Source: Gordius albopunctatus
Lineage: Eukaryota
NCBI GenBank assembly: GCA_964276515.1
Contig: OZ193909.1
Span: forward strand, 17,484,001 to 17,548,000
Length of the DNA: 64,000 bases
Direction of reading: 5' to 3'
The first letter of the stretch is position 1; the number at the start of each line of letters is the position of its first letter. The notes below the pieces were generated by a model. That model did no database searches and was not told the DNA's origin. It worked only from the letters and a program-made list of their open reading frames with translations. This document shows positions 1-49,000 of this stretch, in pieces. The position numbers and the translations under genes are program-made.

Positions 1-58
1 TAAATTTAAAAGGCTACCTTTTGGCTTAAGCATTTCAGCTGCTATTTTTCAGCGTGCT

Positions 59-2035
59 ATGGCGTCGATTTTTAGTAATTTAGACGGTATAATATTTTAT
101 TTGGACGATATATTAATAACGGGACGAACGAGAGATGAGCATGATTTGCGTCTTGTTCAGGTCTTGAATTTAATTAGTCTAAAAGATTTAAAAGTTTCAG
201 CTAAAAAATGTGTTTTTGGGACTGAACAAATTAGCTATTTAGGACATATTTTAAATAATGGTAATATTCAACCAAAGTATGACAAGATAGAAGCCATTAA
301 AAATGTTAAGTTGCCTACTAATAAAAAGGAACTATCGTCATTTATGGGTTTAATGAATTATTATAGTAAATTTATAAATAATTACACTGAATATGCTGGA
401 CCATTATACGAACTGACAAAAAAAGACGTCATATTTAAATGGAGTAAAAGTGATATTGAAAAATTTGATTTTTTGAAAAATATCTTGCTTAAAAAACCCA
501 TTTTAAGATGTTTTGATCCTAACAAACAACATATATTAAGGGTCGATGCGTCTAATATTGGTATTGGAGGCGCATTATGTCAGGTCGAGGATGGTATGGA
601 GCATCCAATTTTGTATTTTTCGCGTAAATTAAATAAAACAGAGGTCGGATATTCGGTTATAGAACGCGAGGCATTAGCGATGATTTACGGTTTACAGCGA
701 TGTCGCGAATATTTAATTGGCAAATCGTTTACTGTGATCACCGATCATAAGCCGCTTGTTGCTTTATTTAAAAAGGCGAACGCCGAACTATTAATGTCTC
801 CTAGATTACAACGTTGGCTTGTAATGTTGGGTAATTTTACATTAACCCTAAAATACGGCAAGGGAGAGGATAATCATTTGGCTGATGTACTATCGCGTTT
901 GGGCGCAGATAACATTGAGGCCGAAGATTTACCTTTGTCTTGTGATATTATAGGAGGACATGTAATCAATTCTTTGAATATTTTAGATTTAAATGATATT
1001 GTTAATGAAAGTAACAGGGACCCTGAAATATGTAAAGTAAAGAATATTTTGGCGGGCTTAGACGATAAAATTAATGTACCTATTCCTTTTAAACATATTT
1101 TGAACGAATTATATTTAGAAGATAATGTTCTTAAAAAGCATGAAAGGTTAGTGGTACCGATTAAGCTTCGTCAGGAAGTGCTAAAAATAGTACATCAGGG
1201 ACACTGTGGAATGGTTAAAATGAAAAGCTTGGCTAGACAATATGTCTGGTGGCCGCAGTTAACTAAAGATATCCAAAAATTCGTTAGGCAGTGTGAGCTT
1301 TGTAAGCTTGATGCACCGATGCCGCGTAGAAATAAAAAATCTAAGTGGCCTCGTCCTAAATTTCCATGGGAGCGTATACACATAGATTTTTTTGAATTAG
1401 ATAAAAAACGGTACATATTAATAGTAGATGCATTTTCCGGTTGGACGGAATTTAGAATTATATCAAATATATCTAGTAGAGTAACAATTACAATTTTGAG
1501 GGAATTGATAGGAAATTATGGGTTTCCAGAAATAATTGTTACGGATAATGGTAAAGCTTTTGTTAGCAACGAGTTTAAACAATTTTGTTTAAAATATAAA
1601 ATTAATCATATTTTAACTCCACCGTACCATCCAAGCTCTAATGGGCAGGTAGAAAGGTATGTAGGTATTGTTAAAAAATGGTTAAAAATAGCTAAAGTAA
1701 CGAAGGACGGAACGTGGTTATCTAAACTTTATCACAATATGTCACCACGGTATCCTAATCGTGCTCCGGTTAGCTATGAGTTTTTGAATCGTAAATTAAG
1801 GTACCCACCCGATTTGTTAAAGTTCACTGAACACCAAACATCGCCCAGTATTAGTGTGCCAAAGTTTAAGGTAAACCAAAGAGTTTGGTATCGAAACTAT
1901 TTGGGGAAACCTAAATGGGTGTTAGGTGTAATTATTGAACAATTAGGGACAAAAGTTTATAAAGTTAAGGACTCAAATGAAAATAAATTTGAAATTAGGC
2001 ACGCGGAACAATTAAAATTGTTTGATGCTATATGA
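59..2035 (+). CDS. pol: Gypsy Pol, 5'-truncated by the window edge (RT C-terminal part, RNase H, integrase)
   Basis: YLDD; RNase H DAS..GIGG and TDHKPL; integrase HQGH..CELC, IHIDFF / VTDNG / GQVER. Confidence 0.95.
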   Translation: MASIFSNLDGIIFYLDDILITGRTRDEHDLRLVQVLNLISLKDLKVSAKKCVFGTEQISYLGHILNNGNIQPKYDKIEAIKNVKLPTNKKELSSFMGLMNYYSKFINNYTEYAGPLYELTKKDVIFKWSKSDIEKFDFLKNILLKKPILRCFDPNKQHILRVDASNIGIGGALCQVEDGMEHPILYFSRKLNKTEVGYSVIEREALAMIYGLQRCREYLIGKSFTVITDHKPLVALFKKANAELLMSPRLQRWLVMLGNFTLTLKYGKGEDNHLADVLSRLGADNIEAEDLPLSCDIIGGHVINSLNILDLNDIVNESNRDPEICKVKNILAGLDDKINVPIPFKHILNELYLEDNVLKKHERLVVPIKLRQEVLKIVHQGHCGMVKMKSLARQYVWWPQLTKDIQKFVRQCELCKLDAPMPRRNKKSKWPRPKFPWERIHIDFFELDKKRYILIVDAFSGWTEFRIISNISSRVTITILRELIGNYGFPEIIVTDNGKAFVSNEFKQFCLKYKINHILTPPYHPSSNGQVERYVGIVKKWLKIAKVTKDGTWLSKLYHNMSPRYPNRAPVSYEFLNRKLRYPPDLLKFTEHQTSPSISVPKFKVNQRVWYRNYLGKPKWVLGVIIEQLGTKVYKVKDSNENKFEIRHAEQLKLFDAI

Positions 2036-2062
2036 TTATGTTCAACGTTTATTGTTATTCAG

Positions 2063-2530
2063 ATGAGAATTAATGCTGCCTGGTGCGACGTGGATTTAGA
2101 GGTGACATCCACGGCATCGAGGAACGAAAGAGTTCCAGTGTATATACTAATAAAAGTGGAGACGAACGAAAGTGCAAGATTGTTGAACTTGACGCACTCT
2201 CCGGGTCCGCCGAGACAGGTTGGGAGATCGTACGCACAAGGCTCAAGAGCCCCAAGACAACCAAGACAGGAAGAGGCTGCGGTCAGAAGTAGAGATACGA
2301 ACGAAGAGCAGCGACGAAACGTGTCTGGGAATCAACCGTTGCTGCGGCCTCCGATCTTGAAAAGAAAGAAGTGTTGGGGGTGTAAAAGCAAGCACTTGCC
2401 CCCAATGTGCTTCAAAGCAAAAACTGGTTCGGGGAAGAAAACTCAACTCAAAGATGTAGCAGAGCTGGAGTCCAGGGTGACTATGGACACCCTGACCTTG
2501 GACAGCCCCGGTCCTTCAACTTCCCAATAA
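2063..2530 (+). CDS. ORF3 of the retroelement (155 aa, basic, CX2CX3HX4C motif), copy 1
   Basis: Open ORF between the pol stop and the PPT; ATG immediately preceded by TTATTGTTATTCAG acceptor; KRKKCWGCKSKHLPPMC. Confidence 0.7.
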   Translation: MRINAAWCDVDLEVTSTASRNERVPVYILIKVETNESARLLNLTHSPGPPRQVGRSYAQGSRAPRQPRQEEAAVRSRDTNEEQRRNVSGNQPLLRPPILKRKKCWGCKSKHLPPMCFKAKTGSGKKTQLKDVAELESRVTMDTLTLDSPGPSTSQ

Positions 2531-2537
2531 TGGAAGG

Positions 2538-3509
2538 TGTGGTATACGTGTATACCACGATACCAGATGTTATAGTATACAGCGTTTTATTTAATGTCCG
2601 CGGTATAAGCGTGTTATTTAATGTTCGCGGTATACTTTGATCTTAATTAAAATTATTTTATTAATGTTAATGTAAAAGGGTTAACGAACGGTTCCGCAAT
2701 CCTTGTAATTAAAAAAAAGGAATTGGTCAAAAGAAGACACTTTTACCGCAGGTTAACCCAGACGCGGAAGTGGCTAATTCTCTTTGACGCTCTCTTTTTT
2801 TAATTACTTTTACTTTTTATTTTTAACTCAGCCACATCTGTTACTAATCTTTGCAGCCCCGTCTGAAGATTTGCTAATTCAATCAAGCCGACCACCCTGG
2901 GGAGATCCAACAGCTATAAAAGCGAAAATCTCACTTCACTAAAAAAGTCCTCGTAAATTTTTCCCCAGTCCTTCGAAGTTTTCCCCTAACTTTGTATTGT
3001 CCCCAAAAACCTTATAATTGTTTCCAATCCCTACGCCTTCGCTCTTTTACTATAATATTATTGAATTGTGTANNNNNNNNNNNNNNNNNNNNNNNNNNNN
3101 NNNNNNNNNNNNNNNNNNNNNNNNNNNNNNNNNNNNNNNNNNNNNNNNNNNNNNNNNNNNNNNNNNNNNNNNNNNNNNNNNNNNNNNNNNNNNNNNNNNN
3201 NNNNNNNNNNNNNNNNNNNNNNNNNNNNNNNNNNNNNNNNNNNNNNNNNNNNNNNNNNNNNNNNNNNNNNNNTCACTTCACTAAAAAAGTCCTCGTAAAT
3301 TTTTCCCCAGTCCTTCGAAGTTTTCCCCTAACTTTGTATTGTCCCCAAAAACCTTATAATTGTTTCCAATCCCTACGCCTTCGCTCTTTTACTATAATAT
3401 TATTGAATTGTGTAATTTAATCTTCGCGAATATTAATCTGTCTTTATCGTTGTAAATAAATTTGCATCTTTCTTTTATACTTAATTTTCTTTCGCCTTAG
3501 ACCGCCGTC
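2538..3509 (+). repeat. 3' LTR of plus-strand copy (contains the N gap and a 142-bp duplicated overlap; lacks the terminal CA)
   Basis: Starts TGTGGTATACG after purine tract AATAATGGAAGG (2526-2537); matches 8586-9217 reverse complement; TATAAAA at 2915, AATAAA at 3455. Confidence 0.9.
3073..3272. other. Assembly gap (200 N); flanks 2931-3072 and 3273-3414 are the same 142 bp
   Basis: Direct reading of both flanks. Confidence 0.98.
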
Positions 3510-3827
3510 TGCAAAGATTAGTAACAGATGTGGCTGAGTTAAAAATAAAAAGTAAAAGTAATTAAAAAAAGAGAGCGTCAAAGAGAATTAGCCACTTCCG
3601 CGTCTGGGTTAACCTGCGGTAAAAGTGTCTTCTTTTGACCAATTCCTTTTTTTTAATTACAAGGATTGCGGAACCGTTCGTTAACCCTTTTACATTAACA
3701 TTAATAAAATAATTTTAATTAAGATCAAAGTATACCGCGAACATTAAATAACACGCTTATACCGCGGACATTAAATAAAACGCTGTATACTATAACATCT
3801 GGTATCGTGGTATACACGTATACCACA
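3509..3827 (-). repeat. Truncated 3' LTR (first ~319 bp only)
   Basis: Matches 8899-9217 apart from a substitution at 3611 versus 9001. Confidence 0.92.
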
Positions 3828-3834
3828 CCTTCCA

Positions 3835-4302
3835 TTATTGGGAAGTTGAAGGACCGGGGCTGTCCAAGGTCAGGGTGTCCATAGTCACCCTGGACTCCAG
3901 CTCTGCTACATCTTTGAGTTGAGTTTTCTTCCCCGAACCAGTTTTTGCTTTGAAGCACATTGGGGGCAAGTGCTTGCTTTTACACCCCCAACACTTCTTT
4001 CTTTTCAAGATCGGAGGCCGCAGCAACGGTTGATTCCCAGACACGTTTCGTCGCTGCTCTTCGTTCGTATCTCTACTTCTGACCGCAGCCTCTTCCTGTC
4101 TTGGTTGTCTTGGGGCTCTTGAGCCTTGTGCGTACGATCTCCCAACCTGTCTCGGCGGACCCGGAGAGTGCGTCAAGTTCAACAATCTTGCACTTTCGTT
4201 CGTCTCCACTTTTATTAGTATATACACTGGAACTCTTTCGTTCCTCGATGCCGTGGATGTCACCTCTAAATCCACGTCGCACCAGGCAGCATTAATTCTC
4301 AT
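3835..4302 (-). CDS. ORF3 of the retroelement (155 aa), copy 2
   Basis: Identical translation to 2063-2530; acceptor AG at 4304-4303 abuts the ATG. Confidence 0.7.
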   Translation of the reverse strand: MRINAAWCDVDLEVTSTASRNERVPVYILIKVETNESARLLNLTHSPGPPRQVGRSYAQGSRAPRQPRQEEAAVRSRDTNEEQRRNVSGNQPLLRPPILKRKKCWGCKSKHLPPMCFKAKTGSGKKTQLKDVAELESRVTMDTLTLDSPGPSTSQ

Positions 4303-4329
4303 CTGAATAACAATAAACGTTGAACATAA

Positions 4330-7300
4330 TCATATAGCATCAAACAATTTTAATTGTTCCGCGTGCCTAATTTCAAATTTATTTTCATTTGAGTCCTTAA
4401 CTTTATAAACTTTTGTCCCTAATTGTTCAATAATTACACCTAACACCCATTTAGGTTTCCCCAAATAGTTTCGATACCAAACTCTTTGGTTTACCTTAAA
4501 CTTTGGCACACTAATACTGGGCGATGTTTGGTGTTCAGTGAACTTTAACAAATCGGGTGGGTACCTTAATTTACGATTCAAAAACTCATAGCTAACCGGA
4601 GCACGATTAGGATACCGTGGTGACATATTGTGATAAAGTTTAGATAACCACGTTCCGTCCTTCGTTACTTTAGCTATTTTTAACCATTTTTTAACAATAC
4701 CTACATACCTTTCTACCTGCCCATTAGAGCTTGGATGGTACGGTGGAGTTAAAATATGATTAATTTTATATTTTAAACAAAATTGTTTAAACTCGTTGCT
4801 AACAAAAGCTTTACCATTATCCGTAACAATTATTTCTGGAAACCCATAATTTCCTATCAATTCCCTCAAAATTGTAATTGTTACTCTACTAGATATATTT
4901 GATATAATTCTAAATTCCGTCCAACCGGAAAATGCATCTACTATTAATATGTACCGTTTTTTATCTAATTCAAAAAAATCTATGTGTATACGCTCCCATG
5001 GAAATTTAGGACGAGGCCACTTAGATTTTTTATTTCTACGCGGCATCGGTGCATCAAGCTTACAAAGCTCACACTGCCTAACGAATTTTTGGATATCTTT
5101 AGTTAACTGCGGCCACCAGACATATTGTCTAGCCAAGCTTTTCATTTTAACCATTCCACAGTGTCCCTGATGTACTATTTTTAGCACTTCCTGACGAAGC
5201 TTAATCGGTACCACTAACCTTTCATGCTTTTTAAGAACATTATCTTCTAAATATAATTCGTTCAAAATATGTTTAAAAGGAATAGGTACATTAATTTTAT
5301 CGTCTAAGCCCGCCAAAATATTCTTTACTTTACATATTTCAGGGTCCCTGTTACTTTCATTAACAATATCATTTAAATCTAAAATATTCAAAGAATTGAT
5401 TACATGTCCTCCTATAATATCACAAGACAAAGGTAAATCTTCGGCCTCAATGTTATCTGCGCCCAAACGCGATAGTACATCAGCCAAATGATTATCCTCT
5501 CCCTTGCCGTATTTTAGGGTTAATGTAAAATTACCCAACATTACAAGCCAACGTTGTAATCTAGGAGACATTAATAGTTCGGCGTTCGCCTTTTTAAATA
5601 AAGCAACAAGCGGCTTATGATCGGTGATCACAGTAAACGATTTGCCAATTAAATATTCGCGACATCGCTGTAAACCGTAAATCATCGCTAATGCCTCGCG
5701 TTCTATAACCGAATATCCGACCTCTGTTTTATTTAATTTACGCGAAAAATACAAAATTGGATGCTCCATACCATCCTCGACCTGACATAATGCGCCTCCA
5801 ATACCAATATTAGACGCATCGACCCTTAATATATGTTGTTTGTTAGGATCAAAACATCTTAAAATGGGTTTTTTAAGCAAGATATTTTTCAAAAAATCAA
5901 ATTTTTCAATATCACTTTTACTCCATTTAAATATGACGTCTTTTTTTGTCAGTTCGTATAATGGTCCAGCATATTCAGTGTAATTATTTATAAATTTACT
6001 ATAATAATTCATTAAACCCATAAATGACGATAGTTCCTTTTTATTAGTAGGCAACTTAACATTTTTAATGGCTTCTATCTTGTCATACTTTGGTTGAATA
6101 TTACCATTATTTAAAATATGTCCTAAATAGCTAATTTGTTCAGTCCCAAAAACACATTTTTTAGCTGAAACTTTTAAATCTTTTAGACTAATTAAATTCA
6201 AGACCTGAACAAGACGCAAATCATGCTCATCTCTCGTTCGTCCCGTTATTAATATATCGTCCAAATAAAATATTATACCGTCTAAATTACTAAAAATCGA
6301 CGCCATAGCACGCTGAAAAATAGCAGCTGAAATGCTTAAGCCAAAAGGTAGCCTTTTAAATTTAAAAAGTCCGGCCTCGGTATTAATTGTTAGGAGCCGC
6401 GATGACTTTTCATCTACCTGTAACTGCAAATAAGCATTGGCAAGGTCAATTTTTGAGAAAAATTTAGCGCCTATTAATTTAGCAAAAATAATTTCTAACC
6501 TAGGTAAGGGGTATTTTACCTCAATAATACATTTGTTTACCGTGATTCTATAATCAGCACAAACCCTAATTGTACCGTCAGTCTTCCTGACAGGTACTAA
6601 AGGTGTGGCCCATTCCGAATAGCCAATAGGTTCAATTACATTATCCTTTAACCATGTTTTAATTACCTCGTCGACCTTATTTTTTAAAATAAAAGGTACG
6701 CGTCTGGCAGAACAAAATTTAGGAATGGCATTTAAATCAACTCTAACCGAAAATATTTCGTCATTTAAACATCCTAAACCAGGTTCAAAAATTTTAGAGA
6801 ATTGGTTTTTTATATTATCAATCTTGGTGTGCCATGTTGTGACCAAATCAGACTTTGCCTCCAAATTAGCTAATTTATGGCATGTGGGTACCAAAGGTAC
6901 CCCGCACTTTAAATCGGCCTGAAAAATGGGTTGTTCTTGGCAGACGGGACCTCCCGAGTTATCTGATTTATGAGCTATGCGCTCTAACTCAGAATGAAAA
7001 ACGGGTGTGAAATCCCTGCACTGTGAACTACCTGACAACGCCTTCGACATCACCATGGACTTAACATCAACTTTCAAAATTTTGCGAGCATTACTTTTAT
7101 TACATAATCCCCACCATTGAATTTTGGGCCCAATTATCCTAATCCAGGACCAGCCCATTATGTTATCTACGTTCTCTTTAATAATAAATAAATCCAATTC
7201 GACTACAAATTCTGCCACTTTAACCAAAACATTAATTTTACCTAAAACAGTTATTAAAGTATTATCAAGTTGCTTAGCAATTATATTAGCAGTTTCAAAA

Positions 7301-7458
7301 TTTCGATCCGGCCAAAATTTTTTAAATGTTTTAAAACTAATAATGGATATTGCGGCGCCAGTATCTAATATAAATGTTAGCTTAAAATTATCGACATTTA
7401 CTATCACTAAAGGTGAAGCTGACGAATTTAAAACTTTATTTATATCTACCTTGCGCAT
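4330..7458 (-). CDS. pol: Gypsy Pol polyprotein (aspartic protease, RT, RNase H, integrase), intact, 1042 aa from first Met
   Basis: LDTGAAIS protease; WATPLVPV, IDLANAY, LPFGL, YLDD RT motifs; RNase H; HHCC and DDE integrase. Confidence 0.97.
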   Translation of the reverse strand: MRKVDINKVLNSSASPLVIVNVDNFKLTFILDTGAAISIISFKTFKKFWPDRNFETANIIAKQLDNTLITVLGKINVLVKVAEFVVELDLFIIKENVDNIMGWSWIRIIGPKIQWWGLCNKSNARKILKVDVKSMVMSKALSGSSQCRDFTPVFHSELERIAHKSDNSGGPVCQEQPIFQADLKCGVPLVPTCHKLANLEAKSDLVTTWHTKIDNIKNQFSKIFEPGLGCLNDEIFSVRVDLNAIPKFCSARRVPFILKNKVDEVIKTWLKDNVIEPIGYSEWATPLVPVRKTDGTIRVCADYRITVNKCIIEVKYPLPRLEIIFAKLIGAKFFSKIDLANAYLQLQVDEKSSRLLTINTEAGLFKFKRLPFGLSISAAIFQRAMASIFSNLDGIIFYLDDILITGRTRDEHDLRLVQVLNLISLKDLKVSAKKCVFGTEQISYLGHILNNGNIQPKYDKIEAIKNVKLPTNKKELSSFMGLMNYYSKFINNYTEYAGPLYELTKKDVIFKWSKSDIEKFDFLKNILLKKPILRCFDPNKQHILRVDASNIGIGGALCQVEDGMEHPILYFSRKLNKTEVGYSVIEREALAMIYGLQRCREYLIGKSFTVITDHKPLVALFKKANAELLMSPRLQRWLVMLGNFTLTLKYGKGEDNHLADVLSRLGADNIEAEDLPLSCDIIGGHVINSLNILDLNDIVNESNRDPEICKVKNILAGLDDKINVPIPFKHILNELYLEDNVLKKHERLVVPIKLRQEVLKIVHQGHCGMVKMKSLARQYVWWPQLTKDIQKFVRQCELCKLDAPMPRRNKKSKWPRPKFPWERIHIDFFELDKKRYILIVDAFSGWTEFRIISNISSRVTITILRELIGNYGFPEIIVTDNGKAFVSNEFKQFCLKYKINHILTPPYHPSSNGQVERYVGIVKKWLKIAKVTKDGTWLSKLYHNMSPRYPNRAPVSYEFLNRKLRYPPDLLKFTEHQTSPSISVPKFKVNQRVWYRNYLGKPKWVLGVIIEQLGTKVYKVKDSNENKFEIRHAEQLKLFDAI

Positions 7459-7488
7459 ATCAATGTAATTTGAATTATCTTGCGCTAG

Positions 7489-7992
7489 TCAATCAAACAC
7501 AGTTTGCCCATTAGCAACTGTTTGCGCGTGATTGACGTGTCCTCTACACTTATAACAAAATTTACCGTCCCCAACCTCTTTTGTGTTGTCGTAATTATTC
7601 GAAGTGGTGGGTGCGTTAAAACTTGGAACGTTTTTCTGGTTAAATCTATAGTCAGTGTAGGGTCTATGGGGTTGCGCATAATTATTAAAATTTTCTCTCG
7701 GACCCCGTTGTGCAAAATTTTCCGAAATATATCTGCAATTTCCCGTATTCCCCCTTTTAAAATATTTATTGTCACAATCCCTTTTGAGATGTCCCCGTTG
7801 CCCACATCCATAACATCTTATATTAGATTTAAAATTAGCCTTAAGTACAAAAACTTTTTCTATTTTCTTTAATTTATATAAGACAAATAAAACTAATATG
7901 CTTAAAATTGATATATATACAAGTAATTTATCTGCGCACAAATAATTAAAAAAATTGATACCAATTGACGGCGGCGTGTAAAAACCAAACAT
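7489..7992 (-). CDS. gag: Gag-position ORF (167 aa): hydrophobic segment plus CCHC zinc knuckle; in frame with pol
   Basis: LLVYISILSILVLFVLY followed by KLKK; CYGCGQRGHLKRDC (CX2CX4HX4C); ends TGA CTA G, then 10 open codons to the pol ATG. Confidence 0.75.
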   Translation of the reverse strand: MFGFYTPPSIGINFFNYLCADKLLVYISILSILVLFVLYKLKKIEKVFVLKANFKSNIRCYGCGQRGHLKRDCDNKYFKRGNTGNCRYISENFAQRGPRENFNNYAQPHRPYTDYRFNQKNVPSFNAPTTSNNYDNTKEVGDGKFCYKCRGHVNHAQTVANGQTVFD

Positions 7993-8567
7993 TATAAATT
8001 ACCAAATGCAATCAGAACTATATTTAAATTAATTAAACTAAATAATTTAAATAGAAATCAAATTCAATCAAACAGCAATTTAAATTAAATAAACTAAATA
8101 ATTTAAATAGAAAATCAAATTTAATTAAATAAAGCAATTTAATTAAAACCAAGCTTAATTAAGTAATCTAAACAAAAGTTTTCGTTTAATCAAAAATTAA
8201 TTAAGTAAATCAAACAAGAGTTTTCAAATAAATTAATTATCATAATGTATACAGTAACCATTTTATTAAACATAGACGTATATAATAATTATTTAATATA
8301 AGTATCACGATTAAAAGTAAAATTATCAAACATAAAAACCCTTTATCCATTATTATGCATAAATAGAAATATTCACCTCCTAATAACTTCAATATAATAT
8401 TTTACAACCGAACATTATATGATCAAATCTATTCCAATATTTTACAACAGAAATATTCGATCAGACCTTATATTCAATTATAATTATTTAAACCAACATT
8501 CAAATAAAAATCTTTTACTAAAAAAATTATTTTTACTTACGATTCCTTTTTTTTAAGAAGAGGGCGA

Positions 8568-8578
8568 TTCTGACACCA
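8568..8578 (-). promoter_or_regulatory. Primer-binding site, likely tRNA-Leu
   Basis: TGGTGTCAGAA 7 nt inside the 5' LTR end; resembles the complement of the tRNA-Leu 3' end. Confidence 0.75.
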
Positions 8579-8585
8579 AATTTAA

Positions 8586-9217
8586 TGGACGGCGGTCTAA
8601 GGCGAAAAAAAATTAAGTATAAAAGAAAGATGCAAATTTATTTACAACGATAAAGACAGATTAATATTCGCGAAGATTAAATTACACAATTCAATAATAT
8701 TATAGTAAAAGAGCGAAGGCGTAGGGATTGGAAACAATTATAAGGTTTTTGGGGACAATACAAAGTTAGGGGAAAACTTCGAAGGACTGGGGAAAAATTT
8801 ACGAGGACTTTTTTAGTGAAGTGAGATTTTCGCTTTTATAGCTGTTGGATCTCCCCAGGGTGGTCGGCTTGATTGAATTAGCAAATCTTCAGACGGGGCT
8901 GCAAAGATTAGTAACAGATGTGGCTGAGTTAAAAATAAAAAGTAAAAGTAATTAAAAAAAGAGAGCGTCAAAGAGAATTAGCCACTTCCGCGTCTGGGTT
9001 TACCTGCGGTAAAAGTGTCTTCTTTTGACCAATTCCTTTTTTTTAATTACAAGGATTGCGGAACCGTTCGTTAACCCTTTTACATTAACATTAATAAAAT
9101 AATTTTAATTAAGATCAAAGTATACCGCGAACATTAAATAACACGCTTATACCGCGGACATTAAATAAAACGCTGTATACTATAACATCTGGTATCGTGG
9201 TATACACGTATACCACA
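8586..9217 (-). repeat. 5' LTR, 632 bp, TG...CA
   Basis: Begins TGTGG (9217), ends GTCCA (8586); TATAAAA at 8840-8834; AATAAA at 8642-8637. Confidence 0.92.
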
Positions 9218-13091: not shown

Positions 13092-14387
13092 TTATTTGCG
13101 CGATTTAGATAAAAATTCATTGATTATATCTTGAGTGTCTGGAATTAAATCTCTATGAATATTCAACAAGGTCAAACCTATAAGCCTATATAAAATTAAG
13201 AGTTTGTAATAAAATGTATTTACCTCTCTTGCCCAGTTCTATTCCTCAAGTAAGTTTTAAGTCTTCTCAGCGTAGAAAAACTTCTTTCATTAGAACACGT
13301 TGTTACTGGGAGTGTTGCTAAAATCTGGTATAACACTCTTATATTTGGATATAGAAGCAGCTTGGAATTATAATCCCACAATGCTTTTAGTGCATAAAAA
13401 GGCAGGACTTCAGGGTTACAATCTTTAAAAGATTGATACCAGAGTTTAATCTCAGCCTCATAAATTTCTTGATTTCCATTCAAATCATCCCCATAAAAAT
13501 TGGCTAAATTCAAAAAGTTCGCCAGTTTAACTTCAGATAGCTTTACAGGTGGTTGTAGTAGTAAAGAATGAAATCCCATGAGAATTTGTTTATTCTCAAG
13601 AAACCTTGTGTCCATTTCTACCAAAAAAGTGTCTAAGAATGCATTATACAGAGTTATTCTATAATAAGCCTCCGGGGTTTGTTGGGCATTTCCTCTGGGA
13701 ATCGAAATCTCAAAGTCATATTGTTTTCCCATCAATGTGACATCTTTAAAAATCCTGGAAAACTCTACCTGAGAATTATTTCTAATTAATTTAATAGCTT
13801 CCACAACGTTTTCGGCCGCATTTATTGCCTGTGATAAGTCCAGGTTAACGCTTTGCAAATGAATACTAAGATTTAAAGTATAAGCAAAAATTTGCTTTAG
13901 TGTGTGTAATGATAACCAAAAATGGCCAGTTTTAAGTGCTGATACCAATAGCATGGCACCCGAAGAGGAATCATTGTCTGCCCATTCACTAATCTGCTCA
14001 AGGGTTGTGATGATTGAATCTCTTAATTCAAAAAAGCGGTTTATTGCTTGATGCTTTTGAACCCATCTTGTTTCACAGAGAGTTTTTAATTTCAAATTTT
14101 TGGAATCTGAAGACTTTACAATTGAATCAAACTTTATTCAAATTGATAGAGGAATTCATATGAAATGCATACGTTTTATAACCACAAGGAAAATTTAGGA
14201 AAAATATATTAACGCCTAAAAATACTTAATGGTTGTTGAAAATAAGAGCTCTCCATAGTTAATTAAATAGCACTCATTTTATAATATTTACTATATAATG
14301 CTATATTAGAAAATAAAAAATATTTTTTCGAAATCCGCGGGGGGGGGGGTTTGAACCCTAAAACCCCCCCCCTTGCGTACGCCACTG
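13092..14387 (-). pseudogene. Internally deleted hAT transposon (ZMYM1/PRKRIR-like transposase C-terminal half)
   Basis: LCETRW and LPVTTCSNERSFSTLRRLKTYLR; a 38-nt intron (13186-13223) leads to RLIGLTLLNIHRD...SRK*; CAGTGGCGTA terminus at 14387. Confidence 0.85.
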
Positions 14388-14399
14388 AACAATAAATAG

Positions 14400-15560
14400 A
14401 TATTGGTGGCGCAATATGACCAAGGATATCAAAGAGTATATTGTGTCATGCCATGTATGCCAGACCCATATCCCAAGGATTGATAAGGCTGTTCCTGTGC
14501 TTAATAACGTGGCCGTCGTCCCAGCACCATGGAAACAAATAGGGATTGATTTGTGCACGTTGCCCATAACCGAACACGGGCATATTTGTATGTTGGTCGC
14601 CATTGATTAGTCTCACTCGGCCAAGGAGACTTCATACAATTTGTGGGAAATATTTTGCCGATGTGGGCGTCCCAAAGTAAAAACTTAGTTGATTTATTAA
14701 TTTTTTAGATTGTTATAAGTGATCAAGGCCGTGAGTTTGTGAACTCACTGTCAGAAGGCTTGTACGCCCTTACTCGCGTACATCACAGGATCACATCAGC
14801 CTACCATCCACAGGCTAATGGACTGGTGGAAAGGGCCAACCGCACCATCGTTAACTCGTTGGTAAAGGTGTTGGAAAACGAAACCAATAAATGGGACGTT
14901 GAAGAGATGTGGACACTGGGGATTTGGTCCACAGAAGTGGATATCATGTTAGCGGCGACAGTTTTTAATATAAATATATATGTTTATTGTTCTCAATTCG
15001 GCCAATGGGCCCCTTATACACCAAAATTAAACGACAAATTATGTACTAATAATATTTATTTACACCATTCTATTAATCATTTTTAATATATATTGGATTG
15101 TAACGAATAAATTTATTTCCATTTAATGATACAATCTATAAAATTAAACCAAAAATTTAGACAGGTATTTATAGATAAACAGATAAATATTAAAAAAATT
15201 AGAAATATGCACAAAATTTGGCAGAAACTTGAGAAATATTCACAAATTTAGACACAAATTTATAGATAAACAGAGAAATAATAAAAATAAACAATTTAGA
15301 CACATAGAAATATCAATAGACAGATATTTATAGATAAACAGGTAAATATTAAAAAAAAATAGACAGAAACTTGAGAAATATTCACAAATTTAGACAAAAA
15401 TTTATTTAAAAATCAAAAAATTTAGACAGAAATGATAAATATTAAAAAAAAAATAGACAGAAATTCTATATGCAACTGAATTATATGGATGTCATGTAAA
15501 CGTAATTGACGTATGTCAAAATTGCAAAGTGTATCTGTCAATAGAACGATTTCCTTAGTG
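14400..15560 (+). pseudogene. Ginger-like DNA transposon relic: gypsy-type integrase fused to an OTU-like tail
   Basis: WWRNM..CHVC, IGIDL, 32-nt intron 14677-14708, ISDQGREF, AYHPQANGLVER, then WSTEVDIMLAATVFNINIYVY..IYLHH..NHF; minisatellite 15150-15470. Confidence 0.65.
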
Positions 15561-15579
15561 CACAAACACAATCTTACAC

Positions 15580-16170
15580 CGGCCACGAACCCGAATTGCT
15601 ACGCCGATATTTCCACCTCGTTTTTCAGCCTTGTTACTAATATCCTTTCCATAAGCTTAAAGGAGTGGCAAGTTAGCTTGATACCTCTGTAATTGCCGCA
15701 TTCCTGAGGGTCTCCTTTGCCTTTAAATAAGAGTATAACCGTGCTTGCTCTCCATTTATTAGGGATTCTCTCTTCTACCAATATCTTGTTAAGGAATTTC
15801 GTCATGGTGGTGACTCCTTCTTCACGACATCCGAGCAATGCTTCCATAGGTATTCCATCTGGGCCATTTGCTTTTCCTTTTTGCATCTTGTTAATTTGTA
15901 TCCTAACTTCATCTTCCTGCAAGAGTTCGACCATACTTATATTTGGCACAATTTCGGGAAGGGAATCCTTGTCATTTGCAATCTTAAAATATTCTTTCCA
16001 CCTTTCCATCACTTCTTTCGGCTTGAATAAGGTTTGACCCTTCTCGCTTTTGACTATTTTAAGAACTCCGACATCGCGACTTTTCTTCTCCCTTATCTTG
16101 GCCAATTTGTACATAAGCCTATCGCCTCCTTTATGATCCAGTTTGTTTGCCATCTCGGTGTACAATGACC
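15580..16170 (-). mobile_element. RTE-clade LINE reverse transcriptase fragment
   Basis: KANGPDGIPME, LFKGKGDPQECGNYRGIKL. Confidence 0.9.
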
Positions 16171-16339
16171 GCGGCCAGGAAAATTCGAGAATGTGTTCAA
16201 ATATTTTTTAAGTTTGTTTATGCAAGCAATACGGCTCCCTCCTTTATTAGTTACAGTGACATAATTACTTTTTAAAAAGCGCGACCAAGCATCTCACCCC
16301 TCACAGTCAAAGTAAGTAGAATCTCTTAATTATTTCCGA

Positions 16340-36849: not shown

Positions 36850-39310
36850 GTATGGTGTTGGTTTAAAAAAATTTAAATTATAGCATGCTAGGATTAATAA
36901 TATTAAAGAAAGGTTAAACAAAATTTTTAACGTGGAATTGGGTTCTTTAAATAATATCATTTTTAAATACTGGTTAATTCTAATGCAGACCACTTTTTTG
37001 TTCTGCGAGAAGCATACCCTTAATTTGGAAAGATAAAGTGCACCAGGTTTTTGTAACTGGCTTAAATATGATGTCATAGAACCGATCAAATATTCGAAAT
37101 GGACAACTCCCTTAGTTCTTGTCAAAAAAAAGTGATGGAACTATTAGAGTGTGCGTGGATTATCGCGTTAATGTTAATAAATTGGCAATTGAAGTTAAAT
37201 ATTCATTACCTAGGTTAGATATGGTTTTAGCTATTTTAAAAAGTAGTAAATAATTTTCCAGGCTAGATTTAGCTAACGCCTAATTAAGATTATTAACAAT
37301 TAACATCATCGATAAGGATTTATTTGCATTTGAACGGTTACCTTTTAATTTAAGTGTATCTGCACCTAATTTTTAGAGGGCGATAGCATTTATATTTAAT
37401 AACATAGAAGGTGTATTTTTTATTTGGATAATATTTTGATCATAGGTCCTAATCAGGATGAACATGATTTACTGTGGAGAAGGTGTTAAATTTAAATAAA
37501 ACTAAAAACCTGTTAGGCATTGACCAAGTAATTTATTTAGGTAATGTAATAACTGATGGTAATGCTAAACCTAATTTTAAAAAATAGACGTAAAAACATT
37601 GATAGATCAAAAGATAGAAACTAGCATCTTTTATAAATTTTATGAATTATTACACAAACTATTCTGGTTCTTTATATGAATTTATTAAGGAAAATGGTTT
37701 ATTTAAATGGGATAATTTATATCAATGCTGTAATTTCTTAAAAAATGTTTTATTCGTTGATCCAATAGTTAGATGCTTCGATCCTGATAAAGAGCATATT
37801 TTAAAAGCGGATGCATCTAATAGGGGTATTGGTGAGACTATATGTCGGATGAAAGGTGAAATATAGCATCCTATTATTTATTTTTTCCGCAAGCTTACTA
37901 AAGCTTATCTAAATTATTTGGTGGTAGAAGATCAGGGTCTTGCTATGGTTTATTAATAGACTTTGTAATGAATATTTAATTGGCAAAGAGTTTTAATAAT
38001 TAACTGATCATAAGCTAGTGGTAGTTTTATTTAATAAAATAAACACAGGTTTTTAATGTCACTAAGACTCCAGAGATGGTCATTAATTCTGTTAATTCTA
38101 GGTAATCTAATCATTCATTAATATCAAAATATAGGGAAGGTAAAAGTAATCTTTTAGGTGATATTTTGTCGCGTATGAACAAAGTAATTTATGGTATTAC
38201 CTAATTAGAATAGTGGTACCTTTATAATTTGGATATCACGTTGTTCACATTCCTTTTTACTATATATGAATACACATTATTTATACTCCTCCTTATTCTA
38301 TTCACAATCATTATAATTTGAATAGCCCCCAACTACCTTACGAGTTATTTATATTAACCTCTTTACAATGGTATATAAGCTAATGCTTAACGATATAGAA
38401 GGACTTTGGTTTTATATTAATAAAGTAGGCTTAAACCCTACAAATTAATGATATTTCTATCTCAGTTAATAATACGCAATTATAAATTATTAATACCAGT
38501 TGAGGTGCGTTCCATATTTTTACACCCACAAACCATCCAAGTTCTAACTTCCACCTGATTTTTTACGTGACAACGCTCATAATGATAATTTAATACGTAA
38601 GACTAAATACAATATTAATGATTTGGTATGGTCTAGGAATTATAATGGTGAGCCTAGATAGGAATTATTGATGGTAATAAACCATATGGGTTATAAAATA
38701 TATAAATTTAAGTCATTAAAGACTGAAAAATAGATACTAGGCATCTTGAACAATAAATGAGTTATAAAGCTTAATTTGTCTATTTAATTTTTATATAAGT
38801 ATCTTCATGGTGCAATGTGCAGGTAGTGACGAGAATATCGGATATTCATCCATCGGGTCCATTGCACATGTCATTCACTATTGGGGAGGATGGCGTTCCT
38901 AGGATGAGTCATTTCTTTAAGAGTCCGGCAGCCATGAGGATCCCAGCGGGGGTCCCGGCAATCAGAACTAGGTATTCGAGAGAGTTACCGGGGCCTAAAT
39001 ATTGCCGTGTTAGATGCGGGAACCGGAGGTGGTACGGGGTTTGCCAGAGATGGCATAACTTACCCATGTGTCCGCCCCCGAGGATAACTTTAAATTACAA
39101 TTTAATTACGATGCCAGTCGTAACGTTGGCGATGAAAGTTATGGATACTTTAATAACTTACTTCGGCGATGTACTTGGCAAGTAATTTGCCGGGATAGCG
39201 ATTCAGCTGGTAAAATAGGAGGTGTGGCATATGTTATATTGACTTTTCTTATATTGCCTCCCGTTCGATTATATTCTAAATATATTGTCTCTCGCCCGAT
39301 TATATTATAC
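36850..39310 (+). pseudogene. Decayed Gypsy element related to the 3509-9217 element (RT, RH, IN end, ORF3, start of LTR at 39223)
   Basis: Frameshifted matches such as [41 protein letters not shown]; purine tract AAAATAGGAGG then TGTGGCATATG. Confidence 0.85.
38817..39185 (+). CDS. ORF3-like ORF of the decayed element
   Basis: Lies between the IN end and the PPT; RRWYGVCQRWHNLPMC resembles KKCWGCKSKHLPPMC; start codon uncertain. Confidence 0.5.
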   Translation: MQVVTRISDIHPSGPLHMSFTIGEDGVPRMSHFFKSPAAMRIPAGVPAIRTRYSRELPGPKYCRVRCGNRRWYGVCQRWHNLPMCPPPRITLNYNLITMPVVTLAMKVMDTLITYFGDVLGK

Positions 39311-39311
39311 A

Positions 39312-40372
39312 CTAGATGAACCCGGCAAACTTTGTTTTGCCATTTACCCGGGTGTATAAAATTATGTTGTAATTTTAGGGCATATTTGATGATAAAGCGG
39401 TTATTGAAGTAAAAATAAAGTTTGATAATTTTTAAACAAATAGTTAAAGAGGGTCCAAGGCCCAGGCCCACCCAAGAGAGAAAACCTGGCCCCATGCCCC
39501 CCAAGGGAAAAATCTTTGGCCCCCTGGCCCTTCAAGCAATTTTTTTTTATTTTTTAGTAATTAAGAAACAATATCATAATTATTTGTTTCTGAATAAAAC
39601 TTTTAATTCTGAACTTAGTAATGTCCGAAGAACTGAGATATACCAACATTAATTGGCACTTTGTTAATTGTATTTTCATTTTTCTCTTTATTTAACACGC
39701 AAAAAATGACAAAATTAGATTTTTTTAAATTTATTTAGCCACGCAGGTGGAGACACGACCGCCCTATAATAATAATAATTGACGTAAAAAATAAGCAAGA
39801 AAATGACTTTGATTCATGGGCGTACCCAGGGGGGGGGGACAGGGGGGGGAAGCAGCCCCCACCCCCCTAATTTAAAAAAATATTAATTTTTCAATGCAAA
39901 ACCCCTGAAAAATTATGTTTTGCCCCCCCCCCCCCCTAATTAGTCTGGGGAGGGCAGGGAGGACGGCTAGCCCCTGCGGGTCTCAGGAAAATATTTGGAT
40001 AGTCGAGAAATTTTTTTTAATCTGCCCCCCCCTCTAATTCAAAACCTGCGTACGCCCATGCTTTGATTTAATGTTTCAAATCGTAAAAAGTTTCCATTTT
40101 CCGCAGCACATGCCTACATTTATCACACTAACATAGTTTTATTTAGATAGGCAGTACGTCATGAGGTTGTGTTTGATTGACATTTTATTAAACGGCAAAA
40201 CATATAAAACAAACTAACTCAAAAAATACTGCACCTATTTGGCTCGAACATATCTTAAAACATGCTCCAGAGTGTGGGGAATAAAGTGTGAAATTTTGAG
40301 CCAAATCGGTCCGGTAGTTCTCCAAAATTGGTGGCGGCATACATACATAGTTTTATTTTTATATATATTATA
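39312..40372 (-). mobile_element. Non-autonomous Helitron (with nested MITE 39815-40060)
   Basis: Minus-strand 3' end GGCAAA-N6-TTTGCC hairpin, GGGTTCAT, CTAG|T; body homologous to 54678-55622. Confidence 0.75.
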
Positions 40373-40689
40373 CATTTATAATTGTACTTTAATAGGCTGT
40401 CATGATTGTTTAAGATGTAGGCAGTAAAAAATTCACGAATTGCTTTTGTATCCAAGGAATCCCGTAATTGATAAGTAATAGGAGTGTAGTGCCTCTGGCG
40501 ATACCTAAATTACCGAATTGTAGAATGTTGGTGGTGATGCCTCGAGTGACAATTAAATTACCGTTAATTGGGTTTAACGTATATCTTCGTTTCTGTATAG
40601 ACCATTATCATTCTCTCGATTTTAATTCTTCCTGACGTTAATTATAATATTATCCTGCGCGGGCGTCCTGAGTAGGATCCTATGCGGTG

Positions 40690-41070
40690 ATGCGAAGGTA
40701 TAAACTAAATAATAATATCAAAGTATTTATAACAAAATTTGAGCTATTCCTAAGGACCGAGCTTAAACCCGGGACGAACGAGAGAAAAGCTGCGATGCTA
40801 TTAGGCAACCTCGAGGGGTAGGTATTCCAATTATTGTTATAAGTCTTTAGACCGCGAGATCTTACAGGAATTTTATACGAAGAAGCTAAGAAACAGCCAA
40901 GGAAATTATTCGATAGGAATTCATGTGTGATGGCAATGAGATATAAATTCTCAAAGGTTCGACAAGAGGTGGGGGAGACGATATACGTATACGCGAAAAA
41001 ACTCAATGCCACAACTCACAGATGCAATTTAGGAAACAAAAAATTGCAAAACAGATTATTTTATTAATTT
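40690..41070 (+). pseudogene. gag: Decayed conventional Gypsy/Mag gag capsid region
   Basis: KAAMLLGNLEG*..LYEEAKK..VMAMRYKFSKVRQEVGETIYVYAKKL..RCNLG with in-frame stops; possible PBS TGGCGA at 40496. Confidence 0.65.
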
Positions 41071-41419
41071 TGCCCTAAATTGAAAAGTGTTTTATTACTC
41101 GCTTAAAATATGCGCATCAAAAATGCTTAAACACAAATTTTAACCTTTAATGATAAACTACTGTGAAAAGCGTAGATTTTAATCTAATACTTACTCAGCT
41201 TATAAGCCAGTCAAACAACCTATTTGTCAAACATATATTAGGAGATCTAATTAAAAAATTAACATTATGATAGAGTTGTTGCTGTCGTCGTCCCTGTAAA
41301 TATTAATAAATATTAAATTCTAATAGATAAGAGGTCTAATAGAGGCAAGCAACATAGATTACTATAATCAAAAAATGTATTTCGATGTGTATGCGGCTTC
41401 ATATATAATTTTGCACAGA

Positions 41420-42440
41420 TAGTTAGTTTTAAGGTATTCAAATATCTAAAATTCGATTTCTATTGTGTTTATAAATTGTATAATAAGGGGTGAGAATAGA
41501 GCGGTACCATACATTCGAATTGTGTAATAAAGGATATGAATAAAGCGTTACCATATATTCAGACTGTTTAATTAATAAGGGATATGAATAAAGTGCTACC
41601 ATATAATTCCGCTCCCTATTTGCAAGTAGTGCTAAAAGTTAAAGTATTCGGCTAATTTAATTGGCCAGTGAACTTTTCAATAGACTTGCTGGTTGTATGG
41701 CTTGACTTAGTGCTGTTTCAGGTGGTTGCAGGTGTAAAGGTGGAAGGCTGAGATGTAATGGTTGGGCATTTTGTGAGTGGTTTTTGTAATTTAACTGATT
41801 CGACATAGACTAGCTTTAAACGGTCAATCGATATTTTATCTTTTTTCCCGTTTCTGTCTATCACAAAATATTTAGCTTGTATCTCAATTACTTTGAAAGG
41901 ACTTTCGGTTTCTATGTGGTTTTGGGTATTGTGTTTTGTTGTTGGCGTATATATTGTGTTTTGAAAACTCTGGGGAATTTTTTTTAATAACGAACTAAAT
42001 TCTTGAGGATGTGTAGAGAAATAGGTTTCTACTTTAATATAACCCAAATTATTCGAGTGAATGCTTTTAAATAAAACGTCGTTTTTATATACACATCTGG
42101 CGAGGTTATTTGTGTGAATAATAATGGTGAATAATGTGGTATTTAAATTATAAGGAGTAATCAAATAATAAGGTTAAGATATATGAATAGTGAGGTTTGT
42201 GAGTGCTCGAATAGTAAAGGTTAAGTATTTTCCTAGGTAACCGATGATTGAGTTGCTTTATTCGAATTACCTAGATAACCATAGATGTACAAAAGTCAGT
42301 TGTTAATTTAACTCGTTAAATGTATTTTGTTTATGTAAAAATGATGAGGTTTGTGTTTCTATTTGTTATCTCTTCTTAACATCTACTGTTAATTTAAAGT
42401 TACTTAAAAAATCTGCACCATATATTGGAAGTTTTACAGA
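41420..42440 (-). mobile_element. Internally deleted Gypsy fragment (protease end, integrase tail, LTR-like tandem repeats at 41480-41610)
   Basis: LPIYGADFL; SPFKVI..ISIDRLK. Confidence 0.6.
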
Positions 42441-46000: not shown

Positions 46001-49000
46001 ATGGTTAATGTAACTAATGTAATGCCACATGTGGCGGTTCTATTTTCTACACTTTAGGACCATGGGGGAGGGAATTAGTGAATAAAAAGAGACCTTACAC
46101 TAGGCAAGCGCGTCTGTAAAATGGCGCGCCGCATAACATCACTAAGTATTAGTAAACATCGCAAAAACAGAATGTACTCTAGTGTACTCCTATTTACAGA
46201 CATAGTTGAAAGAATTTTGATAAGGCGAAGTGTTTGCATTAACACATAAATTCATAAAGAGAAACAAAAATTAAAATATAGCCCTGTAAATTAATCAATG
46301 GTCTATATGATTATATAAATAACATTAAAAATAAATATAAAAAATGGCATGGTAATATAGCCTCTTAAGACGCAAAAAGGCATCTTTTGAACCTTTATCA
46401 TCATTTATCTCGAAATCTGGACGTCTTGGTGAAAAACTAAAAATGATTAGCATATCTCTATCAAAAATTTTGGTCCGATTGTTGCTGTGTTATTCGATTG
46501 CCAAAATTTGTTATCTTTTTAGACTTTATGATATTATTTCTTTATCGGCGAATTTAAGAACATAGCAACTGTAGCGGATATAAAAGAAGAATACCTATAT
46601 GGTAATTTAGCCCAAACTGCCGATTCGATTAAAATAGACATCAACCCTAAGAAAGAGGATAATTTTTCGATTTACGAGAATACCAACCTAGCCGGCGATG
46701 AAAAGGATATGATTAACAAGTTTCCCCTTACGGCATCTTTTATTTAATTTAATTATCTCTCCTGTTAGGTGTATAGATGAGATATTGGTTAAATTGATTA
46801 AGACTTCCATCAATGCAAACGATAACTTTTGTGAGCAGCTCTCCCCATCCCTTCTTTCCCACCTACGGAACTTGGTTCGACAAAGGTTGTGGTTCGAGAA
46901 AATAACTGACGAACAGCACATGCTTAAATGGGAATCGACGATCGTTGAAATGGCATTGAGGGTTATTGATTTTATTGAGTTACGTCCTACCGGAAATCCT
47001 GAATTTGATAACATATGTTCTTGTATCAAAATCAAAAAAATTTCCCCATCCTATCTTTATTTTTTACATGATGCCGAGCTAATGGAGAAAAAGGAAGAAA
47101 GGGCAATCTTTCTTTTTCCAGGCATAGTGTTTACGCAAAATTTGGTTCACAAGGATATGACAATGTTTTCGGCTAAGCCCAAATTAATGTCCATTGCAAG
47201 CCAACATAATTTATTGTTAGAATTACCTCAACCTAGTATATTAATGCTACGCGGTCCTATAGAATACCAGAGGGTCGAACACAAGCTTGCATCCCTCGAA
47301 CCCATAATAATGCAGGAGCGTGAATATTTAAAAAATGTGGTGGCCAAAATAACAGCTCTCAAGCCTGACATCGTTATAGTGCTCAAACAAGTTTGTCTCT
47401 TGGCTCGCGAACTTATGCTAGAAGCTGGGATTGCTTTGATACACAATGTTAAGAAGGAACAACTTTTCACACAACTCTCCATTTTAGTTGAAGCGGAAGT
47501 CGTACGATCTATGGAAGGTGGTCACTTGTTTTTTAAACCGAAAATGGGGCTGTGTAGAAGTCTAAAAATTGTGAAGGTTTACTCATTGGGAAGCAAAAGT
47601 AAAACGCTGGTATTTGTAGAGGCATATTCTGCAAGCGACCAATATATCTCAAAACCCGAAAGACTACCCTATTGTACACTTTTATTATCTACTTCGCGTA
47701 ACCTAAGAATTGCCGGAATTATTAAACGAATACTCCGTTTTACCATATATGCCGCTTATCACCTTAAGCTCGATGCAAGTTTCGGCGTTAGCTGCCAAGT
47801 CAAAAACGAAACCATAACAAAAGAATTATCCTACTCCGAATGGACTAAAGCTTTTAGAACATTAATGCAACTCAAAAATTTCTTATTTTATCCTGAAAAG
47901 GTCGCTGATGCTACTCTGATCGAAAATGATGTTAAACATTTGAGTCCTTCTGGGGAAACTCCAGACGCCTGCGTAAATAAAGTAGCTCTTTACCAATTGC
48001 TCCTTCTAAATATCTCGCTATCTGTAACCCCCGACGTTCGTTTTAAAATTCCTTATATGGATTGCTTAAAAGAACTAACGTCAAACCCTTTTCGAGGTGC
48101 GGATGATAATGCAAAGATGAAACATTACGCTTATTTGTCAAACATGATACCGTCTCGCCTGTATTTTTCTAAATTTTGGGATAACACTCCTGGGGAGATT
48201 TTGTTGCCTCCTAACTGTGATTCAAATGAGAAAAATGATGTTCCTATAACGAATATCTCTGAAACTAAAGATGGTTTATTATTCCGACACTTTGTTGAAT
48301 CATCCGATGATTTAGGAGATTATTTAGCGCGTTTTAGGTACGAAGATGAATACATGGTAACGCCCAACAAGGAAACGGAAGTTATTGATGAAAATCATAA
48401 CCTTTTACAAAATTCGCCACCTGATTGCTTCGATATAACGTCTTTACAAAGGATACACTTTTTGTTCTACAGTTTCTCTACCAACTCTACCAATTACCCT
48501 TCATACTGTATATCTCCTTGGATCGTTAAAATGAATTTTTACGGTTTGCACGATATAAGCCTTCACACCTTTTTGTTTCGATTTTGTTTTGATCCGAATT
48601 ATCAATGCCCGAGCAGCGTTTGTCAAGCTTCTTGCTTGACCCACGTACGTCGGTTCGTCCACGATAATCGGAGTATTAACATCACTTTACTAAATTATGC
48701 GAGCGATGGGGTGAAAAACAAACAATTTTTTTCAGCAGACGTGATCATCTATTGGACTGGTTGTAAAAAATGCGGGGTTCCTCTTACCGGTCCCAGTTGT
48801 ATGTCACGGTATGCTAAGCAACTTTCTTTCGGGAAGTATTTAGAATCCTTGGCTTATGGACGGACCAACGATGGAAACACTTGCAAGACGTCTCAGTGCT
48901 CTGATGCTTCCATCGAAGCGAGAGCTACGAACCTGAACCATTTTTTTGCTTACCGTTCCGTAGTGGCCTGTTTTACATGTCAGAATGTTAAAATAGGTAA

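Follow-up and report, generated by a model that had tools for sequence, protein, structure and literature searches.

A Mag-like Ty3/Gypsy LTR retrotransposon, recognized by its sequence features at 3509..9217 on the minus strand of the 64-kb window (the whole stretch of DNA analyzed here), has no capsid-coding sequence between its LTRs. Its Gag position is instead occupied by an open reading frame, ORF1, predicted to encode a membrane protein that carries a zinc knuckle. The explanation to which we give the most weight, with a probability of about 0.45, is that this protein holds the element's RNA and a Pol made by readthrough at a membrane, with a relative providing the capsid. In LTR retrotransposons and retroviruses alike, the capsid is accepted as the core that Gag proteins have in common. 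If a young family retains all enzymes and a knuckle but has a helix in place of capsid, it would represent either a new form of hitch-hiking on helper particles or a case in which a membrane compartment replaces the capsid. Such a family bears on the necessity of the capsid itself and on the way in which membrane functions resembling those of matrix or envelope first became part of Gag.

Layout of the element and absence of a capsid

The element displays the direct LTRs and the PBS-like and PPT-like signals of Ty3/Gypsy retrotransposons, with only 319 bp of its 3′ LTR present here. The 5′ LTR (8586..9217, minus strand) is 632 bp long, is bounded by TG...CA, and differs from the element's own 3′ LTR piece at 1 position in 319 bp (99.7% identity). 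Seven nucleotides beyond its end begins a primer-binding-site-like sequence (8561..8578), assigned from its sequence, which starts with TGG, and its position; no tRNA was found in the 64-kb window. This is followed by an AT-rich noncoding leader of 568 bp (7993..8560, minus strand, 18% GC) that has stops in all six frames and eight upstream ATGs opening ORFs of 3 to 36 aa. The longest of these, at 8243-8350 on the minus strand, is a second hydrophobic frame, of 36 aa, and a self-complementary AT-rich stretch (8021-8109) lies immediately 5′ of the ORF1 ATG. At the other end, a polypurine-tract-like stretch (3828..3839) runs across the stop of a third frame, ORF3, and leads into the first 319 bp of the 3′ LTR (3509..3827), which is truncated at the boundary with an inverted second copy. 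In runs X1 and X2, contig joints link 9217 to 3830 across two intervening letters; they correspond to a PPT-LTR junction and so confirm the LTR start. The inverted copy (1..3509, plus strand) comprises the 3′ part of pol, ORF3, and a 3′ LTR with a 200-N gap. It is 100% identical to the element, tail to tail, over 2856 bp (1-3509 versus 3509-6364), and its 3′ LTR pieces show 2 differences from the 5′ LTR. This copy may be a duplication or an assembly artefact, and the element's 3′ flank, on the target-site duplication side, is lost at the inverted junction. We consider the insertion young, given the single mismatch over the 319 bp of LTR that can be compared and a pol that runs through 1052 codons without a stop.

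The pol gene (4330..7488, minus strand) encodes, by domain matches, Gypsy-type protease, reverse transcriptase (RT), RNase H, and integrase in that order. Among the best 120 of 1639 protein matches, the closest was a protein of the horsehair worm Gordionus at 45% identity (two Gordionus proteins at 42-45%), and most further matches were K02A2.6-like at 34-39%. In a tree of 25 of 121 pol proteins, built without named reference elements or an outgroup, the element and the two Gordionus proteins formed one group with support of 100/100; the label Mag is one that we presume from motifs. From this placement, the host is probably a horsehair worm or a similar animal. The spacer between protease and RT (~6800-7100, minus strand) is ~80 aa longer than in typical homologues, a length common to the two Gordionus proteins. 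More than 200 residues precede the protease motif in the same ORF in 101 of the 120 listed pol homologues. A search with pol residues 1-260 yielded none of 886 candidates, and metagenome contigs with pol were uninformative, representing three distant loci (27-35%), in one of which a knuckle was all that could be recognized.

ORF1 and pol share one frame and are separated by a single stop, a point overlooked by the sequence-only reading. This stop lies in a UGA-CUAG sequence (7485..7491, minus strand), a context reported as readthrough-prone (10.1101/2021.04.18.440353). Since a single stop in leaky surroundings is all that separates pol from the frame ahead of it, the junction is a predicted readthrough site, and readthrough would produce an anchor-knuckle-Pol fusion, the link that the tether idea requires. 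An ATG ten codons past the ORF1 stop could also initiate pol independently. RNA structure 3′ of the ORF1 and pol stops was not significant (z of -1.6 and -1.0, respectively). Past the UGA that ends pol, ORF3 (3835..4329, minus strand) continues in the pol frame for 164 codons and contains a CX2CX3HX4C knuckle-like motif. Its GC content is 49% versus 34% for pol, and 3 of its 5 listed differences among copies are synonymous. ORF3 had no match in a Pfam search and only weak ones in the ESM Atlas (best 0.91, arthropod clusters); its single-sequence fold prediction, of low confidence (mean pLDDT 43), shows strand and disorder with no helices. It is possibly a readthrough tail of integrase or a second nucleic-acid-binding protein; as a capsid it was rejected on the negative capsid-profile search and the predicted strand and disorder. 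With two probable in-frame stops to pass (ORF1/pol and pol/ORF3), expression would also follow a pattern that is unusual among animal Gypsy elements.

The sequence-only reading had described the Gag position as devoid of a capsid domain, and profile searches bear this out. A gag profile built from 101 Mag-like homologues was run against all six translations of the element, each stop being replaced by X, and its matches were confined to the knuckles. A capsid-only profile from 95 of the 101 Gags was then compared with 21 element-derived targets, namely ORF1, ORF3, the spacer, and six frames each of the leader, LTR, and 3′ region. All gave E-values of 1.8 or worse, four of them not being reported at all, while a decayed capsid at 40690-41067 of the window, used as a positive control, scored 3.5e-14. 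The profile was sensitive enough to detect three of four fragments of this decayed capsid at E 4.5e-4 or better, 45-aa pieces (E 4.5e-4) included. With hhalign, capsid probability was under 5% for the five element targets run and 96.8% for the control, and direct comparison of the capsid remnant with the element by tblastn and phmmer gave only noise (best E of 0.05 and 0.1). The stretch upstream of ORF1 (7993-8560) likewise contains no long ORF, as had been claimed. The element thus lacks the capsid domain of a canonical Gag and combines, in the manner of Tos17, absence of capsid with an intact pol and cis signals.

The positive control belongs to the surroundings of a decayed element of the same lineage (36884..39310, plus strand), whose pol pieces are 36-74% identical to the element's pol. 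In frame with its pol end lies an ORF3-like region (38799-39185, 47% GC) with weak similarity to ORF3 (E 0.02, pairwise), and there is a PPT-like stretch and an LTR start, TGTGG, at 39224. The decayed Mag-type capsid-coding region (40690..41067, plus strand; gag profile E 2e-14) begins ~1.4 kb past this LTR start, of which ~1 kb is a repeat insertion (~39311-40370) that we take to be Helitron-like from its ends. Decayed knuckles accompany the capsid remnant. The whole of 36884-41480 (plus strand) may be a tandem unit, which would show that capsid is present in near relatives; as the capsid remnant follows the LTR start and the repeat, a normal Gag may be found among them. The position of the remnant beside a same-lineage element favors helper availability, the linkage of remnant and element being putative, and this decayed sequence is the only capsid seen in the 64-kb window. 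Further mobile remnants lie at 13220-14137 (minus), 14404-14888 (plus), 15599-16207 (minus), and 41718-42173 (minus), and include hAT transposase and Gypsy integrase pieces and, recognized by eye, another integrase tail and a LINE-like RT piece, the latter with no Pfam match. Two host genes are also present, one with PIP5K and TCP-1-like domains in a PIKfyve/FAB1-like open frame of 1524 codons (46713-51287, plus) and one encoding an inositol polyphosphate kinase (58773-60901, plus).

ORF1 and the variation among its copies

ORF1 (7489..7992, minus strand) encodes 167 aa, from an ATG at 7992 to a stop at 7491-7489, and is overlapped by an antisense frame of 127 aa. In order, it comprises a 22-aa N-terminal segment, a predicted transmembrane helix, a basic patch, a CCHC knuckle, an N/R/Y-rich spacer, and a degenerate knuckle. 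The 17-residue hydrophobic run noted from the sequence maps to residues 23-39 (7876..7926) with a Tyr at its end; its mean Kyte-Doolittle hydropathy is 2.79 over 17 residues and 2.49 over 19, and 5 Lys follow within the next 15 residues. In the 101 Mag-like Gags, no 19-mer was as hydrophobic (0/101; maximum of 1.62). An AlphaFold2 single-sequence model displays one helix over residues 8-50, with a pLDDT of about 91-95 over residues 21-40, under 50 outside the helix, and 46 on average for the whole protein. Beyond the helix lies an amphipathic stretch with a moment of about 0.5. The CX2CX4HX4C knuckle (residues 60-73, 7774..7815) scores above the cut-off for Pfam zf-CCHC (PF00098, E 5.9e-5), and the degenerate CYKC..H is found at residues 146-151, so that ORF1 has one canonical nucleocapsid knuckle and a degenerate second one. 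Fewer than 60 residues indeed precede the first knuckle, which starts at residue 60, compared with positions 116-265 (median of 211) in the 101 homologous Gags. From hydropathy and the positive-inside rule, ORF1 is predicted to be a single-pass membrane protein, N-out and C-in, with the knuckle on the cytoplasmic side because basic residues follow the hydrophobic run.

Searches for homologues returned the knuckle and nothing of the N-terminus. In a word search none of 26 candidates reached E 0.001, and HMMER against 1.84 billion representatives gave 156 matches, of which the best 150 were nearly all knuckle-only and the 8 extending furthest beyond the knuckle were generic knuckle proteins. Leads from the ESM Atlas were of the knuckle type (best 0.83), and none of 22 viral contig stretches carried ORF1. 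No published description of a capsid-less, membrane-anchored Gag was found in a literature coverage that was incomplete and left subscription journals largely outside.

The sequence-only reading had cautioned that T-rich DNA can yield hydrophobic translations by chance. This caveat holds for hydrophobicity alone, which is weak evidence because 8 of 47 random sequences of leader composition that stay open are equally hydrophobic over a 19-mer (3% of all random sequences of that composition, open or not). It does not extend to the open frame, which is improbable by chance for codons 2-59 (0.003) and for the part upstream of a splice acceptor proposed near 7841 (0.012).

To follow the segment in other copies, 7765-8045 was compared with contigs of four runs (19, 180, and 37 contigs, and none in X7), and ORF1 with its leader was found covered by contigs from two organisms. 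In run X1, contigs matching ORF1 and the leader exactly had depths of 1643 and 1499 versus 151-217 for divergent ones. From this roughly eightfold difference we infer several near-identical copies, although depth is no copy number; together with the contigs from two organisms, it suggests that the element is not a one-off deletion. The listed differences, pooled over unphased contigs, number 39, of which 31 fall in codons 1-59, 2 affect the knuckle, and 6 lie just 5′ of the ATG; expectations were drawn from the same substitution types. In codons 1-59, 13 of the 31 differences were synonymous versus 8.3 expected (P=0.043), and none created a stop in the ORF1 frame, whereas each of the other frames gained 2. 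For the part that precedes the proposed acceptor, the count was 11 of 24 (P=0.045). The strongest signal, in a post hoc split, came from codons 1-22, with 6 synonymous differences of 8 (P=0.003). Within the helix there was no synonymous excess (3/10 versus 3.3 expected), and hydropathy was not kept better than under neutrality (P=0.72); replacements there were never charged, amide, proline, or stop, with 0 polar gains against 0.85 expected, which is not significant (P=0.32).

Contigs too divergent to align across the segment appeared as loose ends, 17 of whose 40 rows were read by eye; they carry more weight than the counts. One, a single contig, keeps an ATG at exactly 7992-7990 and, of the first nine residues, M, F, T, P, and S, the last three through synonymous codons. 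In another, the ten residues specified by codons 23-32 are all apolar or small when read in the ORF1 frame, and in no other, the alternative frames containing a stop in one case and Asn/Asp in the other. Matching ended at 8000-8002, just 5′ of the ATG, in several contigs of three runs, and the only long loose end at that point was again AT-rich. No joints were listed within 7765-8045 and no loose end among those shown ran from the knuckle into unrelated sequence, in a comparison that a strongly diverged capsid-bearing relative would escape. Length changes also occur. At 7904, within the helix, X3 and X4 each have a contig that lacks 1 nt (depth 676/77,508 and 252/6,815, respectively); an extra nucleotide in a contig of X1 appears to be compensated; and one X3 contig has three gaps totaling 18 nt. 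Conservation of the N-terminus in copies is supported by the synonymous differences, the kept ATG, and the apolar run, but not by helix hydropathy, which shows no excess over neutrality. Taken together, the copies support statistically, with modest strength, that ORF1 is kept as a protein from its ATG onward. Differences at 7838, 7839, and 7842 flank the proposed acceptor, and this copy variation speaks against the hydrophobic codons being spliced out at ~7841.

Proposed membrane tethering with a borrowed capsid, and the alternatives

That RNA and Pol may be held at a membrane, as the sequence-only reading had suggested, stands in part, with the absence of capsid, the N-terminus kept in contigs from two organisms, and UGA-CUAG, which supplies the link to Pol, on its side. 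Most ribosomes would halt at the UGA and release the short anchor-knuckle protein, and a minority would pass UGA-CUAG to make anchor-knuckle-Pol, so that the stop/readthrough ratio would keep the structural product in excess of the enzymatic one, as is usual for Gag and Gag-Pol. In the predicted N-out, C-in orientation, the cytoplasmic knuckle would bind genomic RNA and chaperone primer annealing, and crowding at the membrane would allow the protease to dimerize and to free RT and integrase. The shell, in the least certain step, would come from a capsid-bearing Mag relative of the same genome, as proposed for Tos17 of rice. We put the most weight on a borrowed capsid because of this Tos17 precedent and because a Mag capsid is found in the element's genome. 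Several points temper the proposal. The selection signal on the ORF1 N-terminus is modest, and Pol would be joined to a membrane anchor and not to capsid, which counts against borrowing in that it offers no obvious route into the helper's particle. The searches gave no homologue of the N-terminus, pol may start at its own ATG, and the one capsid seen is decayed, with a putative link to the same-lineage element.

An autonomous LTR lineage with no capsid at all seems doubtful to us. The anchor-knuckle protein, clustered at the membrane, would replace the capsid, hold RNA and Pol, and form a membrane or vesicle compartment for reverse transcription, perhaps carried between cells. The element has retained the protease, the knuckle, and the stop-type switch between Gag and Pol, which is what a structural role for ORF1, as a protein made in excess, would predict, and the architecture persists in the copies of two organisms, even those too divergent for 80% alignment. 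An anchor would moreover be superfluous for a simple borrower of capsid, and Tos17 lost gag without remnant (PMC3977881). Full autonomy is difficult to reconcile with a CA-NC core that, according to PMC2577118, every Gag of this kind shares, and the Mag-type capsid remnant in the window indicates that potential helpers are, or once were, present in the host.

The hydrophobic segment could also be incidental, in a plain nonautonomous, capsid-deleted family whose N-terminal codons supply a start and an open frame or are spliced out at ~7841, which we judge rather unlikely. The DNA is T-rich, with 23% GC in codons 1-59, and the open random sequences above, like the hydrophobic upstream ORF starting at 8350, illustrate how easily such a stretch arises by chance; the helix itself shows no synonymous excess, and a frameshifted minority copy exists. 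Yet the synonymous excess reaches upstream of the proposed acceptor, the first residues are conserved in one divergent contig and the apolar run stays in frame in another, and copies differ around the acceptor itself.

It appears improbable that ORF1 is a fusogen of the sORF2/FAST-like type fused to a nucleocapsid knuckle and moving ribonucleoprotein between neighboring cells. In hydropathy and counts, it displays most of the screening features given in 10.1101/2025.03.14.642691: a size within 60-210 aa, one predicted helix, an ectodomain of 10-50 aa (22 in ORF1), a tail under 150 aa (128), at least 3 K/R in the 15 aa that follow the helix (5), a Tyr at the helix end, and an amphipathic stretch after it. 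However, such features are widespread among single-pass proteins, no sequence similarity is known, and the described sORF2 proteins are separate genes next to an intact, capsid-bearing gag. ORF1 begins with M-F and lacks the MGxxxS/T myristoylation motif, for which reason we do not class it as sORF2/FAST. Finally, a capsid hidden by extreme divergence, in a spliced or edited leader, or in ORF3 is hardly credible: the 763 nt from primer site to first knuckle offer about the room of a Mag capsid, but the leader has stops in all frames at 18% GC, ORF3 is predicted, at low confidence, as strand and disorder with no helices, and profiles that detect 45-aa pieces of decayed capsid find nothing in the element.

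Comparison with known systems

Like Mag-clade (K02A2.6-like) Ty3/Gypsy elements, the element combines LTRs, PBS-like and PPT-like signals, and a PR-RT-RNase H-IN pol with a CCHC knuckle before the protease. It differs from them in lacking capsid, in the predicted membrane helix ahead of the knuckle, in the in-frame UGA that splits gag and pol, and in the extra in-frame ORF3. Its second knuckle is degenerate and ~70 aa away, whereas Mag elements usually have two CCHC knuckles (PMC2577118).

For the junction, the closest parallel is Moloney murine leukaemia virus, in which one stop likewise separates gag from a pol in the same frame and Gag-Pol is made by readthrough of that stop (PMC5009743). 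The predicted readthrough site of the element has UGA with CUAG and no significant 3′ structure (z -1.6), that of the virus UAG with a pseudoknot. A 2003 survey cited in PMC5009743 found pol in the -1 frame in 28 of 51 animal elements. The sORF2/FAST-like proteins of MDG1-group retrotransposons (10.1101/2025.03.14.642691) share with ORF1 a short ectodomain, one predicted helix, a Tyr followed by a polybasic patch, and a position upstream of pol. Unlike them, ORF1 has no myristoylation motif, is fused to a knuckle, is in frame with pol, and has no capsid gene beside it.

Capsid-less elements themselves have precedents in plants, in a different superfamily and a different kingdom. BARE-2 of barley is described as having an intact pol without a capsid of its own. 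Tos17 of rice (PMC3977881) is a gag-less Copia element with an intact pol that is proposed to use the Gag of Lullaby; it resembles the present element in being active-looking with no capsid of its own, but its gag was lost without remnant, whereas the element keeps a knuckle and has a new N-terminal hydrophobic segment. The element is a Ty3/Gypsy family lacking the capsid.
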